DNA of 64,000 nucleotides from assembly GCA_041660165.1 (NCBI GenBank), contig JBAZWW010000002.1, positions 43,290-107,289 on the forward strand, given 5' to 3'. Source of the DNA: Patescibacteria group bacterium (GTDB lineage Bacteria; Patescibacteriota; Patescibacteriia; UBA9934). The notes under the pieces are model-generated. The model was not told the DNA's origin and did not search any database. It worked only from the letters and a program-made list of their open reading frames with translations. Within the stretch, counting starts at the first letter, position 1. Each line of letters opens with the position of its first letter. This document shows positions 455-59,530 of the stretch, piece by piece. Made by a program: the position numbers and the translations under genes.

Positions 455-3421
455 ATGTCAGACGACAAAAAATCCGCTCATTCCGCGCAAGAACTCGAGA
501 TCCTCGAGTATTGGAAAAAGAATAAGGTCTTCGAGCGCTCGGTGAGCGAGCGCCCTGAATCAAGGCCGTACACGTTTTATGATGGCCCGCCGTTTGCCAC
601 CGGCATGCCTCATTACGGGCACATCGTCGGCTCTGTCATGAAGGACGTTATTCCTCGCTACCAGACGATGCGTGGGTTTCGCGTAGACCGCCGTTGGGGT
701 TGGGACTGTCATGGACTTCCTATCGAGAATATCGTCGAGAAGCAATTCGATCTCAAGAGCCGAAAGGACATTGAGGCTTACGGCGTGGGCGCTTTTAACG
801 ACCGCTGTGAATCAACGGTGCTCAAGTACGCTGAGGACTGGAAAAATGTGATTAACCGCCTTGGCCGGTGGGTAGACATGGAAAATGCGTACCGCACCAT
901 GGACCGCCCGTTCATGGAATCCATTTGGTGGGTGTTTTCTACGTTGTGGGAGAAGGGCTACATTTATGAAGGGAGAAAGGCGATGCAAATCTGCCCTCGG
1001 TGCGAGACTTCACTCTCGAACTTTGAAGTTGCGCAAGGTTATCTCGACGTAACGGACATTTCAGTTACCGTATCCGTCGAGCTGACGAGCGGGAAGTACA
1101 AGGGCGCGAAAATTCTCGTTTGGACCACGACTCCTTGGACTCTGCCGGGCAACGTTCTCCTCGCTGTTGGCGCTGATATGGAATACTCGCTCGTTGAAGA
1201 GTCAGGCGAGAAGTACATTTGTGCGTCGAGCAGACTCGGTCATGTTTTCAAGGGCAAAGAACCAAAGGTGATCGAACAGTTCGCCGGCAATAATCTGGTC
1301 GAGTCCACTTACAATCCCATTTTCCCGTATTTCCATGACCATGGAAATGCTTTTCGAGTGGTCTCGGCTGATTTCGTGACGGATACTGATGGCACGGGCA
1401 CGGTTCATATAGCCCCAGGCTTCGGAAGCGACGACATGATGCTCGGCGAGGCTGAAAAGGTGAAACCGCTCATGCATGTGAAGATGAACGGGCAGTTTGT
1501 AGATGAGGTAGCCAAGCCAATGACGGCCGAGGGATATCCTGTGGATGGCGTGCCGATGAAAGCGAAGGGGGAGTACTCCGTGATAGACATTCAAATCATC
1601 AAGTGGCTGGCACACAACGGAAAATTATTCGCCAAGGAAAAAATCGTTCACAGTTATCCGCATTGCTGGCGCTGTGACACCCCGCTTTTGAACTACGCCA
1701 CGAGTTCGTGGTTTGTTCGAGTATCCGAAATGAACGATCAGTTGCTCGCCACAAACCAAAAGATCAATTGGGTGCCGGATAACATGAAAGAAGGTCGATT
1801 TGGTAAATGGCTCGAAGGCGCCCGCGACTGGGCAATTTCGAGATCCCGTTATTGGGGTACTCCGCTCCCGGTTTGGAAAAGCGAAGACGGCGAGATTATT
1901 GTTATTGGTTCCGCCGAAGAACTCGAAAAGTTTGTCGGTCACAAGGTCGATAACCTCCACAAGCACGTGGTCGACAATTTGGTGATCGAGCGCGACGGTA
2001 AGGAGTTCCGTCGTATCCCCGAAGTGCTCGACTGCTGGTTTGAGTCTGGCTCAATGCCCTACGCTCAGTTGCACTATCCATTTGAGAATAAAGAAGCGTT
2101 CGAGGCGAAATTTCCGGCTCAATTCATCGCCGAAGGCCAGGATCAGACTCGCGGTTGGTTCTACACGCTTCACGTTCTTGCAAACGCGCTTTTCCAAAAG
2201 CCAGCTTTCGAGAACGTCATCGTGAACGGTATCGTGCTTGCAGAAGACGGCAAGAAGATGAGCAAGCGCCTGAATAACTACCCAGATCCCATGGAAGTCA
2301 TGGAAAAGTACGGCGCTGACGCGGTCCGTTATTATTTGATGTCTACTCCCGTTGTCCGTGCCGAGAATTTGCGGTTTTCCGAGGCTGGCGTGGATGAGGT
2401 CAGTAAGAAGTTCATCACGATCATGAAGAATTGCGTCAGTTTCTATAGGTTGTATGCCGAGCATGATGATCACAGAAAGCCAAACGGCGAACATGTTCTC
2501 GATGCCTGGATCCTCGCCCGCCTGAATGAGACTCTTGAGTCTGAAACAAAGTCCATGGAAGCGTACGAGCTGTCCGAGGCCGCTCGCGTTCTGCAAAGTT
2601 TCGTCACCGATCTTTCGCAATGGTACGTCCGACGCTCGCGCGATCGAGTCAAAGTTGACGGAGATGACCGTGCCGAGGCACTTGCGACCTTGCGTTACGT
2701 CCTCGAAACCTTCGCTAAGATGACCGCTCCCTTCATGCCATTCTTGGCCGAGATGATTTGGTTAGATCTCCAGTCCCTGAGCGTCAGCGAAGGGCCTACC
2801 GGACGTCGCGATTACGCTATGTCCGGCCCCTCGAAGCGCGAAGAGCGAAGTGGGGGAGGTGGCGGATTGGCTCAGGACGGTGGCTCTGTCCACCTCGAAT
2901 CATGGCCAACTGCCGACAAGGTTGATGCGAAGGTCCTAGAACAAATGGGCGAAGTCCGCGCCATCGTTTCGCGAGTGATGGAAGTCCGCGTGGAATCCGG
3001 CATGGCCGTTAAACAAGCCCTCGGTTCAGTAGAGATCACCACTCCGACCGGCAAAATCAGCAAAGAACTCCAGCCAGTCATTCTCGACGAAACAAACATC
3101 AAAAAGTGCTCCGTCAAAAAGGGCGAGCTTAAGGTCGAGGTTGATTTGAAGCTTACGCCCGAGTTGGTTCGTGAGGGCATTGCTCGGGAAGTTACTCGAA
3201 AAGTAAACGGTTTGCGAAAAGACACGGGCATGACCATTGCTGACAGAATTCATCTCTATATTTGGTCAGATTCCCAGGAAGTCGTGAAAATGTTTGAGGA
3301 ATTCTCCACCGAACTCGCTGTAAATACGCTCGCCTCTAAGGTCGAATTCGGAAAGAAAGAAGGGCTGGCGAATGTAGCAAGTTTCCGGGTCGCGGAGCAG
3401 GATTTGAGCGTAGGTTTTTGA
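455..3421 (+). CDS. ileS: isoleucyl-tRNA synthetase
   Basis: HIGH motif (PHYGHIVG) and KMSKR, a WAISRSRYWGTPLPVW motif, and class I editing-domain length. Contains a Gly-rich in-frame insertion (see findings). Confidence 0.95.
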   Translation: MSDDKKSAHSAQELEILEYWKKNKVFERSVSERPESRPYTFYDGPPFATGMPHYGHIVGSVMKDVIPRYQTMRGFRVDRRWGWDCHGLPIENIVEKQFDLKSRKDIEAYGVGAFNDRCESTVLKYAEDWKNVINRLGRWVDMENAYRTMDRPFMESIWWVFSTLWEKGYIYEGRKAMQICPRCETSLSNFEVAQGYLDVTDISVTVSVELTSGKYKGAKILVWTTTPWTLPGNVLLAVGADMEYSLVEESGEKYICASSRLGHVFKGKEPKVIEQFAGNNLVESTYNPIFPYFHDHGNAFRVVSADFVTDTDGTGTVHIAPGFGSDDMMLGEAEKVKPLMHVKMNGQFVDEVAKPMTAEGYPVDGVPMKAKGEYSVIDIQIIKWLAHNGKLFAKEKIVHSYPHCWRCDTPLLNYATSSWFVRVSEMNDQLLATNQKINWVPDNMKEGRFGKWLEGARDWAISRSRYWGTPLPVWKSEDGEIIVIGSAEELEKFVGHKVDNLHKHVVDNLVIERDGKEFRRIPEVLDCWFESGSMPYAQLHYPFENKEAFEAKFPAQFIAEGQDQTRGWFYTLHVLANALFQKPAFENVIVNGIVLAEDGKKMSKRLNNYPDPMEVMEKYGADAVRYYLMSTPVVRAENLRFSEAGVDEVSKKFITIMKNCVSFYRLYAEHDDHRKPNGEHVLDAWILARLNETLESETKSMEAYELSEAARVLQSFVTDLSQWYVRRSRDRVKVDGDDRAEALATLRYVLETFAKMTAPFMPFLAEMIWLDLQSLSVSEGPTGRRDYAMSGPSKREERSGGGGGLAQDGGSVHLESWPTADKVDAKVLEQMGEVRAIVSRVMEVRVESGMAVKQALGSVEITTPTGKISKELQPVILDETNIKKCSVKKGELKVEVDLKLTPELVREGIAREVTRKVNGLRKDTGMTIADRIHLYIWSDSQEVVKMFEEFSTELAVNTLASKVEFGKKEGLANVASFRVAEQDLSVGF
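2774..2797 (+). repeat. palindromic repeat family copy inside the ileS CDS (TCCCTGAGCG-tca-GCGAAGGGCC)
   Basis: The core TGAGCG-nnn-GCGAAGG is identical to the intergenic copies. The surrounding about 108 nt encode an insertion in the IleRS C-terminal region. Confidence 0.55.
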
Positions 3422-3446
3422 TCCTGAGCGCAGGCGAAGGATCCAG
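3420..3446 (+). repeat. palindromic repeat family copy (GATCCTGAGCGCAGGCGAAGGATCC)
   Basis: 7-bp inverted arms GGATCCT/AGGATCC, starting at the ileS stop codon. Confidence 0.7.
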
Positions 3447-3463
3447 AGGTGGGCTATTGGAAT

Positions 3464-58649: not shown

Positions 58650-59456
58650 ATGAACATCATTGGCGATATCCTGACCGCGCTCCTGTATCAGCCGATCTAC
58701 AACATGCTGATCTTTGTATATGGCGTTTTTCCCTGGGGTGGATTAGGCCTTGGCATCATCGTTGTCACGCTCGTGATAAAAGTGCTGACGTTGCCACTCA
58801 CGTATAAGTCAATGAAGGCACAGAAGGAACTTCAGGAAATCCAGCCAAAGATTGAAGCCATTAAAGCAAAGTACAAGGGAGACTCTGCCAAGCAGGAAGT
58901 GATGGCCAAGGAACTCATGGGCATCTACAAGCTCCACAACGTAAACCCATTCGCCTCTTGTTTGCCGACTATTCTCCAGTTAGTTGTGTTTATCTCATTG
59001 TTCAAAGCGCTCACGGCGGGCCTAAAATCAGTTGATCTTGGGCTCCTGTATCCGTTTGTTCATGATCCGGGGTTGTTGAGCCATATGTTTTTGGGCATGG
59101 ACTTGGCCCACGTATCCATTCCTCTCGGTATCCTTTCAGCAGGGATGCAATACTTCCAGGCCAAACAAATGGTAGGAAGCCGTCCGCCAAAAGCGGTGAG
59201 ACAGGGGCCGAACGGCTCGGAAGCTATGGATGAAGACATGACCGCTACCATGAACAAGATGACGCTGACCATGTTGCCGATCATGATGCTGGTCATGGGT
59301 GTTACCACGCTTCCGGGCGGTACCACGCTCTACATCTTTGTGAGCACGCTCATCACGTATCTCATGTATATCGTGTTCCTCCAGCCTCCGGCTCCCTCGG
59401 CGAGTACGCCGGCATCAATTGTTGGCGAGATCGTTTCATCAGAGAAGCGCACTTAG
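58650..59456 (+). CDS. yidC: membrane protein insertase YidC (short form)
   Basis: KSMKAQKELQEIQPKIEAIKAKYK...NPFASCLPTILQLVVFISLFKAL conserved core. Confidence 0.85.
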   Translation: MNIIGDILTALLYQPIYNMLIFVYGVFPWGGLGLGIIVVTLVIKVLTLPLTYKSMKAQKELQEIQPKIEAIKAKYKGDSAKQEVMAKELMGIYKLHNVNPFASCLPTILQLVVFISLFKALTAGLKSVDLGLLYPFVHDPGLLSHMFLGMDLAHVSIPLGILSAGMQYFQAKQMVGSRPPKAVRQGPNGSEAMDEDMTATMNKMTLTMLPIMMLVMGVTTLPGGTTLYIFVSTLITYLMYIVFLQPPAPSASTPASIVGEIVSSEKRT

Positions 59457-59463
59457 CACTTTC

Positions 59464-59530
59464 TCCATCCCGAGCTATGCGAGGGATCCGACCTTCACCG
59501 GTGAGGGTCGGATCCCTCCTGTCGTCGGGG
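59464..59530 (+). repeat. palindromic repeat family, extended degenerate copy
   Basis: CATCCCGAGCTATGCGAGGGATCCGACC ... GGTCGGATCCCTCC ... GGGATGAGG. Confidence 0.6.

Follow-up and report, generated by a model that had tools for sequence, protein, structure and literature searches.

What are the short palindromic repeats that recur across a patescibacterial genome, in the spacers between genes and in two cases inside genes, and which protein might recognize them? We addressed this question in a 64,000-nt stretch of a Patescibacteria group bacterium (GTDB lineage Bacteria; Patescibacteriota; Patescibacteriia; UBA9934; assembly GCA_041660165.1, contig JBAZWW010000002.1, positions 43,290 to 107,289), hereafter the window, which lies at approximately 104,643-168,642 of ENA ERZ27249449 contig k141_293751. 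An earlier note, made from the letters of this DNA, had counted at least 11 copies of the repeat and likened them to repetitive extragenic palindromes (REPs), Rickettsia palindromic elements (RPEs), and similar small repeats. We find that they form a REP/RPE-type family, namely a variant of the CGTC-tagged REP and Ssn-related motif (SRM) hairpins that is interrupted by G·A mismatches and present in many phyla. As a family of CGTC-tagged DNA hairpins of the REP/SRM kind, the repeats are probably recognized in single-stranded DNA (ssDNA) by an Ssn-type nuclease; we put the probability of this reading, which draws on analogy with homologous hairpins, at roughly 0.6. Because this class of repeat, its nature as a hairpin, and its link to nucleases have already been published, these results extend a known kind of repeat and are not the discovery of a new one.

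Structure of the repeat unit

The unit has the consensus YGTC-AT-CCY-GA-GC-GNNA-GC-GA-RGG-AT-CT and makes a hairpin of ~25 nt, which occurs alone or in inverted dimers of ~80 nt that fold as hairpins or three-way junctions. An unpaired 5' tag, YGTC, precedes a stem of nine positions (AT-CCY-GA-GC with GC-GA-RGG-AT), in which an A-T and a T-A pair are followed by three co-varying pairs, then by G·A / A·G mismatches of the sheared type at positions 6-7, and then by two G-C pairs. The stem is closed by a G-N-N-A or GAA loop and followed by a 3' tail, C-T. Across 165 ascertained copies, tag positions -3, -2, and -1 are T (75 per cent) or C (19 per cent), G (95 per cent), and T (98 per cent), and the next base is C; the loop has G (82 per cent) and A (78 per cent) at its ends and a pyrimidine at its third position in 64 per cent of copies; and the tail reads C, then T (80 per cent), then C or G.

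The family is under strong selection for hairpin pairing. In 164 of the 165 copies, the degenerate Y and R stem positions agree with each other, T being matched by A and C by G. We also ran a looser pattern, GTCAT-xyz-GAG-N5-9-CGA-z'y'x'-ATC, over 1.53 Mb of fetched loci and obtained 241 matches versus ~0.06 expected. All three free stem positions are paired in 237 of these 241, with at least seven compensated stem variants, and among the matches that fall outside the pattern used for fetching the loci, 80 of 84 are fully paired. The description of each unit as a hairpin is thus borne out, both by this covariation and by the folds of the long window copies (z = -8.7 and -8.3), and the compensatory changes that a covariance model was to look for are present within the window itself, where the dimers starting at 6291 and 7290 differ by such changes. 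The loop is GNNA in 173 of the 241 copies and a 3-nt loop of the GAA type in 53, and a GCGAAGC triloop variant is present. Both d(cGNNAg) and d(GCGAAGC) are DNA mini-hairpins of unusual stability, and we infer that the loop preference fits such structures rather than RNA GNRA loops.

To count copies in the window, we re-read the coordinates of the earlier note copy by copy, using dinucleotide-preserving shuffles as the control, and ran a covariance model, R1, with filters off. R1 was trained on 60 copies, all from other phyla or organisms and none from the window. In the window, the core TGAGCGNNNGCGAAGG is present six times versus 0.12 times in the shuffles, every copy that had been named was found again, and R1 detects 13 hairpin units at E <= 0.0023, which fall with weaker matches into 12 loci. 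The repeats are real. Two details fared less well: copies 6381..6402 and 57247..57270, said to be identical over 24 nt, are identical over 22 nt (23 of 24 positions match), and the supposed degenerate relative at 41866..41990 belongs to a separate family and has no R1 match. About 10 further copies lie in 18 kb flanking the window, so that over the 82 kb examined (the window plus these flanks) the density is ~1 locus per 3-5 kb. In a relative from the candidate phyla radiation (CPR), locus L142, a further stem variant of the GTCAT type, GTCATTGCGAGGG...CGAAGCAA, lies 3' of tyrS (6063-6110). As R1 was built from CCY variants and misses this hairpin, its copy counts are lower bounds.

Spread across bacteria

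We scanned public collections (IMG/VR and GTDB genomes) with the pattern CATCCYGAGCNNNNGCGARGGATC and took 140 loci from the matches. Matches lie in 20 IMG/VR contigs and, within GTDB genomes, in at least 120 stretches; with equal base frequencies assumed, chance alone would give ~4 in 596 Gb. Among the matches listed, the hosts belong to ~20 phyla and carry near-identical units: Acidobacteriota, Bacillota, Chloroflexota, Gemmatimonadota, Pseudomonadota, Cyanobacteriota, Bacteroidota, Verrucomicrobiota, Planctomycetota, Omnitrophota, Nitrospinota, Actinomycetota, Synergistota, Deferribacterota, Cloacimonadota, Bdellovibrionota, several CPR lineages, and others. In an IMG/VR contig (L006, 8595-8967) and in a metagenome-assembled genome of Pseudobacteriovorax (L113, 7549-7850), four to five full elements follow one another in tandem, the period being 87 nt.

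Two simple vehicles of spread were considered and rejected. A 61-nt consensus dimer has no match in PLSDB, which does not favor plasmid-borne spread, and a pair of inverted copies 1.6 kb apart (L025), considered as the ends of an autonomous element, encloses housekeeping genes. A literature search for the repeat sequence strings returned irrelevant primer matches only.

Association with Ssn-type nucleases

Ssn proteins (cd10448) are single-domain GIY-YIG nucleases whose targets are NTS/SRM hairpins: they bind the hairpin and cleave ssDNA on its upstream side (Chenal et al. 2025, Nat Commun 16:2388; PMC11893778). SsnA has no action on double-stranded DNA, on RNA, or on the reverse strand; its activity depends critically on the C that follows the palindrome and on the three bases that precede it; most ssnA homologs are flanked by SRMs; and the role of Ssn nucleases outside Neisseria was left open (PMC11893778). 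In the consensus of the present family, GTC directly before the palindrome and C directly after it are conserved, and both cleavage and binding are reported to depend critically on these positions.

Ssn homologs are also found next to these repeats. They are flanked by R1-positive units in five lineages: Ruminococcaceae (L123), Rubricoccaceae (L137), Alphaproteobacteria (L037), Planktothrix (L233), and Spirosoma (L235). In three of the 140 loci, a GIY-YIG gene of ~90 aa starts 10-60 nt past the end of an element, in the same orientation, and in L123 the gene sits within a tandem array of elements, in one spacer. The GIY-YIG proteins beside this family are 47-48 per cent identical to a 94-aa SsnA-type protein of Neisseria. 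Among viral contigs, where only two Ssn loci were found, a relative of the GIY-YIG gene is embedded in CGTCATTCCAGCGAAAGCTGGAATC hairpins. A tblastn search for Ssn homologs against plasmids and chromids gave 33 records, mostly from Alphaproteobacteria and Neisseria. In all 12 loci that we fetched, a tagged hairpin lies within 400 nt of the Ssn homolog, and in 10 of the 12 it lies ~100 nt or less upstream of the start codon. The Planktothrix (protein WP_083616022.1) and Spirosoma loci from this search carry the family of the window itself. R1 gives classical hairpins of the NTS type no more than 14-17 bits.

Published work on homologous hairpins, together with Ssn genes within arrays of this family in five lineages, leads us to propose the following mechanism. 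The hairpin would form in ssDNA and be recognized by a single-domain GIY-YIG nuclease of the Ssn type (cd10448), which would bind it and nick the ssDNA just upstream of the tag. The nuclease and hairpin would then behave as a selfish or domesticated element. More speculatively, Ssn itself might drive the copying of the hairpins, and the window copies that lack the GTC tag, which are the majority, might still be bound and no longer cut, that is, be decaying relics. A protein-binding role, one of the functions suggested earlier, is accordingly favored by analogy, as homologous hairpins are sites of Ssn binding and cleavage (PMC11893778).

The proposal has a concrete substrate and enzyme to offer, with TGTCATCCTGAGCGNNAGCGAAGGATCT as the candidate substrate hairpin of this family. 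The variant falls outside the published SRM pattern and is nevertheless present around Ssn genes in Bacillota, Rhodothermota/Bacteroidota, Cyanobacteriota, and Alphaproteobacteria, suggesting that SRM censuses undercount the family. A still wider reading is tentative, and we would not lean on it: the G·A-interrupted hairpin may be the pan-bacterial cognate site of one clade of Ssn nucleases, overlooked by present SRM searches, and the pair may be the mobilizing system of CGTC-REPs, a GIY-YIG counterpart of RAYT/REPIN that could seed 36-nt in-frame insertions in essential genes of ultra-small CPR genomes, ileS and valS among them.

Relationship to named repeat families

CGTC-tagged REPs have the tag CGTC, TGTC, or CCTC, a stem of 8-9 bp that starts with A and T, a loop of 4-5 nt, and a 3-nt tail; they occur mostly as inverted dimers, have intragenic copies, and take in dRS3 of Neisseria as well as RPE-4/RPE-6 of Rickettsia (Di Nocera, De Gregorio & Rocco 2013, BMC Genomics 14:522; PMC3733652). 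The same study states that there is 'no dedicated transposase', with no tyrosine transposase gene flanked by CGTC repeats, and that repeats with more than one stem mismatch were dropped (PMC3733652). The tag-stem-loop-stem-tail layout of our family is that of the CGTC-tagged REP superfamily, RPE-4/RPE-6 included, and upholds the REP/RPE-type reading of the earlier note. Shared features are the YGTC tag (conserved over the 165 copies; in the window, only on two long dimers), the 9-position stem with A-T and T-A as its first two pairs, the 4-nt loop, the unpaired tail, frequent inverted dimers capable of forming larger hairpins, copies that lie in frame within genes (ileS and valS), and the lack of transposase linkage. 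Unlike CGTC-REPs as described, our family has two conserved G·A mismatches in its stem and a CT(C) tail, where theirs is given as CCA. CGTC-REPs were reported from five phyla, mainly from Alphaproteobacteria, whereas this variant is found in ~20 phyla, CPR/Patescibacteria included, among the matches listed. One of the four families of Di Nocera et al. may conceivably overlap with it.

With NTS/SRM, the family shares an oriented hairpin whose palindrome is directly preceded by GTC and directly followed by C, a copy number in the hundreds per genome with clustering around genes, a ~94-aa single-domain GIY-YIG gene with repeats on both sides (in the five lineages named above), and enrichment in symbionts with reduced genomes. 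Unlike NTS/SRM, it does not match the published degenerate SRM pattern, most of its window copies are untagged, and no ssn gene lies within the 82 kb; NTS copies are intragenic in 2 per cent of cases, compared to 2-3 of the 12 window loci. Like RPEs, these are palindromic repeats of a reduced genome that lie in frame in essential genes, where the peptide they add would sit in a surface loop (Ogata et al. 2000, as summarized in PMC10969869). Classical RPE-1, as summarized there, is ~100-150 bp long and specific to Rickettsia, whereas our coding units measure 36 nt and the family is pan-bacterial. The parallel with REP/REPIN-RAYT systems consists in a tagged hairpin of ssDNA, found as singlets and as dimers, and in a small, dedicated nuclease gene with its own repeats on either side; there, however, the tag is GTAG and the enzyme a Y1 HUH transposase, and here they are YGTC and GIY-YIG.

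Copies in the window and their gene context

Besides two coding copies, the 12 loci comprise four single units (at 3414, 6376, 15976, and 57229), five inverted dimers or compound forms (at 6291, 7290, 8420, 55823, and 59460), and one doubtful copy:

R1 units, plus strand: 2776, 3414, 6291, 7290, 8420, 15976, 43731, 59460
R1 units, minus strand: 6330, 6381, 7334, 55875, 57246
R1, weak second halves of dimers: 8483 (-), 55823 (+), 59507 (-)
2772..2797, plus: coding copy in ileS, reading QSLSVSEGPTGR; R1 2776-2793, E = 2.9e-4
3414..3461, plus: single hairpin unit GATCCT-GA-GC-GCAG-GC-GA-AGGATC with 3' extension CAGAGGTGGGCTATTGGA; R1 3414-3447, E = 1.8e-6; 93 per cent match over 42 nt to 57229-57270
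6291..6370, plus: full element, inverted dimer with GTC tags outward; R1 6291-6323 (+), E = 1.1e-7, and 6330-6370 (-), E = 8e-7; three-way junction fold, -33.1 kcal/mol as DNA, z = -8.7
6376..6404, minus: single hairpin unit in opposite orientation, 6 nt past the dimer 6291..6370; R1 6381-6400 (-), E = 7e-5
7290..7374, plus: full element, inverted dimer; R1 7290-7322 (+), E = 9e-6, and 7334-7374 (-), E = 1.4e-3; three-way junction fold, z = -8.3; stem variant ATCTC/GAGAT, compensatory relative to 6291-6370
8420..8507, plus: compound element, intact 5' unit (tag CCCC) and degenerate 3' unit; R1 8420-8452 (+), E = 2.4e-5, and 8483-8500 (-), E = 0.23; fold z = -2.9
12485..12517, minus: possible decayed copy, marginal, antisense in a DUF4012 gene, GTCATCCGCGGCCAGCGCAAGGATCT; R1 E = 0.015
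15976..16014, plus: single unit (tag TCCC) with extension TAGAGATGG; top R1 match, 38.3 bits, E = 4e-9
43726..43761, plus: coding copy in valS, a 36-nt in-frame insertion, QSPSVGEGPRGG; R1 43731-43748, E = 2.3e-3; 83 per cent match over 36 nt to 57237-57272
55823..55908, minus: compound element, intact minus-strand unit and degenerate partner; R1 55875-55908 (-), E = 1.5e-8, and 55823-55858 (+), E = 3.6
57229..57272, minus: single unit with extension; R1 57246-57269 (-), E = 3.9e-7
59460..59543, plus: compound element, intact 5' unit and degenerate 3' half; R1 59460-59492 (+), E = 3.1e-5, and 59507-59543 (-), E = 1.6; fold z = -4.2

In this compact genome, the repeats fill intergenic spacers and supply stop and start codons. 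Element 7290..7374 takes up the spacer between genes 6362-7285 and 7375-8433, and 55823..55908 the entire spacer between genes 55417-55824 and 55916-56272. The proximity of intergenic copies to stop codons is stronger than had been claimed, as three stops lie inside elements: that of ileS (3419-3421), whose T-GA overlaps the stem of unit 3414..3461; that of gene 7375-8433 (8431-8433), which is the TGA of CCTGAG in element 8420..8507; and that of the DHH gene (57245-57247), a TAG held by element 57229..57272, which ends just 5' of the nusA start. Gene 6362-7285 has as its called start the ATG in the terminal GGATGAC of element 6291..6370. Other copies begin 6 nt 3' of the stop of the DUF11 gene (a Pfam assignment; unit 15976..16014) and 4 nt 3' of the yidC stop (59460..59543). 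The label 'HD protein', given earlier to one of the neighboring genes, is without Pfam support. Annotation pipelines will probably translate such repeats into spurious peptides or run gene ends through them. Directly 3' of ileS lie genes for a SET-domain protein and a RhuM-family protein (3449-5110), both unusual in a reduced genome.

Gain, loss, and coding insertions

Copies have been gained and lost between close relatives, given that sites in valS, in ileS, and between tyrS and argS are filled in some orthologs and empty in others; this agrees with the suggestion that the repeats are mobile. Judged from homologs of its ValRS and IleRS, the window comes from the Patescibacteria, near 'Candidatus Uhrbacteria'. 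In IleRS, the repeat is part of a lineage-specific insertion of ~38 aa between PFLAEMIW and SVHLE. Repeat peptides are present in the window protein, in P0241 (SQSLSVSEGPRGG), and in P0243 (SQSPSEGEGPRGG), and the insert is absent from P0242 (87 per cent identity) and P0244. Most close ValRS orthologs read VWYR-GEE-I-AVGE and have no insert, where the window protein adds the repeat-encoded QSPSVGEGPRGG. P0002 (89 per cent identity) has the insert as in the window, and P0006 has a longer one ending in LSEGEGSRGG. Other ValRS relatives carry the same hairpin family at the same site in two other frames (VISSEARDL; SSQDPEATKG). The copies noticed earlier inside ileS and valS are thus in-frame coding insertions in both genes and, judging from the alignments, both appear to be 36-nt insertions in variable loops.

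In T. thermophilus ValRS, the counterpart of the valS insertion site is the Zn-knuckle loop. The ValRS of the window lineage lacks, in the region encoded by 43690-43800, the Zn-knuckle cysteines of the T. thermophilus enzyme, and across CPR relatives this loop has been struck repeatedly by hairpin insertions, in all three reading frames.

At the tyrS-argS junction, a full element is present in one relative (L143) and absent in the window and in L141; L142 has another hairpin, of the GTCAT type, with no R1 match. No target-site duplications were seen by eye in a dozen clean examples. The window belongs to a Patescibacteria genome that is dense in these repeats, which remodel essential proteins in frame and set the ends of genes.

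Alternative explanations

Several results weigh against recognition by an Ssn-type nuclease. No Ssn homolog was found in the window, in its 18-kb flanks, or in 48 kb from three CPR relatives, and an Ssn gene is present in only three of the 140 randomly matched loci. Neighbor-gene enrichment (BLAST clustering and Pfam, on 142 open reading frames [ORFs] of at most 330 aa beside copies) gave no family in more than two of the 142, these being ABC transporters and the like; no transposase family was enriched among neighboring ORFs of the 140 loci either. The published SRM pattern, HGTCWYN(0-2)YYVSBRHN(0-5)WNVSBRGN(0-2)RNCYNB, has no match in the window versus 0.46 in shuffles and leaves our consensus unmatched; the two G·A mismatches in the stem of this variant put it outside the pattern. 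In the window, the GTC tag is present only on the two long dimers (6291 and 7290), the other copies having CCC or nnG, and cleavage is doubtful at these other copies because the tag is missing there. We also know of no demonstration that Ssn mobilizes hairpins. The published role of Ssn in Neisseria is the modulation of transformation (PMC11893778).

The loss of tags would also fit the idea that the window copies are inert relics of a past invasion with no present partner or function, kept only since some now provide stop or start codons, ribosome-binding-like AGGA/GAGG, or tolerated loop residues. The degenerate second halves of three dimers and the lack of an ssn gene in the 82 kb fit this idea, and so does the valS insertion, which is common to relatives down to 77-89 per cent protein identity and must therefore be old. 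Relics alone would not account for the high density of loci, for copies that remain 93 per cent identical over 42 nt, for occupancy that differs among relatives, or for the stem pairing that folds of the window copies still show, and we consider this explanation unlikely. We give even less credence to a classical REP/REPIN system moved in trans by a RAYT or an IS200-type Y1 (HUH) tyrosine transposase acting on ssDNA hairpins. The anatomy is the same (an unpaired 4-nt tag, a hairpin, singlets, inverted dimers, arrays, and no obvious target-site duplication), and in L033 a degraded RAYT-like ORF is found 1.1 kb away from a copy and is followed, 90 nt downstream, by a degenerate element end. Yet the tag is YGTC and not GTAG, and 80 acidobacterial RAYT loci are flanked by their own REP, GCTGCCCCACCCTTCGCGGTTTTCGAAGGGTGGG, with two copies of the window family in 366 kb. 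Di Nocera et al. saw no tyrosine transposase gene with CGTC repeats around it (PMC3733652). A phmmer search with four Y1 queries (E. coli YafM, IS608 TnpA, and two approximate RAYT-like sequences) found nothing in the window or the other 139 loci, which is a weak negative.

The same low standing applies to the view, raised in the earlier note, that the repeats act in RNA as 3'-end hairpins that terminate transcription or stabilize mRNA, with their sequence conservation incidental. Most copies do lie 0-15 nt after the stops of co-directional genes, the long forms fold very stably, and many REPs are held to be transcribed (Di Nocera et al., PMC3733652). However, spacers are so tiny that any intergenic insert adjoins a stop codon, and the asymmetric copies stand in both orientations relative to transcription (four same, three opposite). 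None of the copies is followed by a T tract, and there is no overlap between copies and the 20 terminator-like sites in 1-20000; these results do not support a role in termination. The loops are not GNRA or GNRA-like, SsnA is inactive on RNA, and a generic stability hairpin would leave unexplained both the conserved unpaired nucleotides and the near-identity over ~20 phyla among the matches listed. The repeats have no Rfam match at the gathering threshold, and an E-value search of 6200-8600 gave chance microRNA and lncRNA matches only. Recognition of the hairpin as ssDNA by an Ssn-type nuclease remains our preferred reading.

Two other identities were tried and set aside. A likeness to CUGA...GAA brought up a hammerhead ribozyme or another known RNA, but there is no Rfam match and the junction strands misfit. 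The acidobacterial RAYT clade was considered as a partner and has its own, different REP. The RAYT (Y1 transposase) genes of this clade (metagenome loci L144-L223; e.g. L150, 1595-1755 and 2310-2400) carry their inverted REPs in a clean REP-RAYT arrangement.

Other repeats in the window

The region 41866-41990 is one of two copies of an unrelated repeat that resembles a miniature inverted-repeat transposable element, the second being 62806-62957. The copies are ~125-150 nt long, have terminal inverted repeats of ~20-33 nt (GGCCC..GGGATGT.GCTGAC / GGCCCGAGGAATCATTGAC), and share a 58-nt core with 86 per cent identity. The RNase P RNA gene (23026-23553, minus strand) measures 528 nt compared to 367 nt for the model. 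A 37-nt segment near one of its ends (23498-23534) has an 86 per cent inverted match to 54149-54185, beside the tRNA gene 54195-54277, which suggests that a repeat may have inserted in the RNase P RNA gene. A further small palindrome, AAAGCGGGGTTTCAAACCCCGCCCAGGTCGCGGACG, recurs at 9425-9460, 14121-14156, 34874-34893, and 58591-58626, its copies lying within a FemAB-like gene, at the 3' end of nusA, and between genes. Finally, an intergenic direct repeat of ACAGAT-type words, CAGATTTACACAGAT...ACGACAGATTTAACACAGAT, occurs at 40592-40635 and 48057-48100 with 77 per cent identity and could be a regulatory site.

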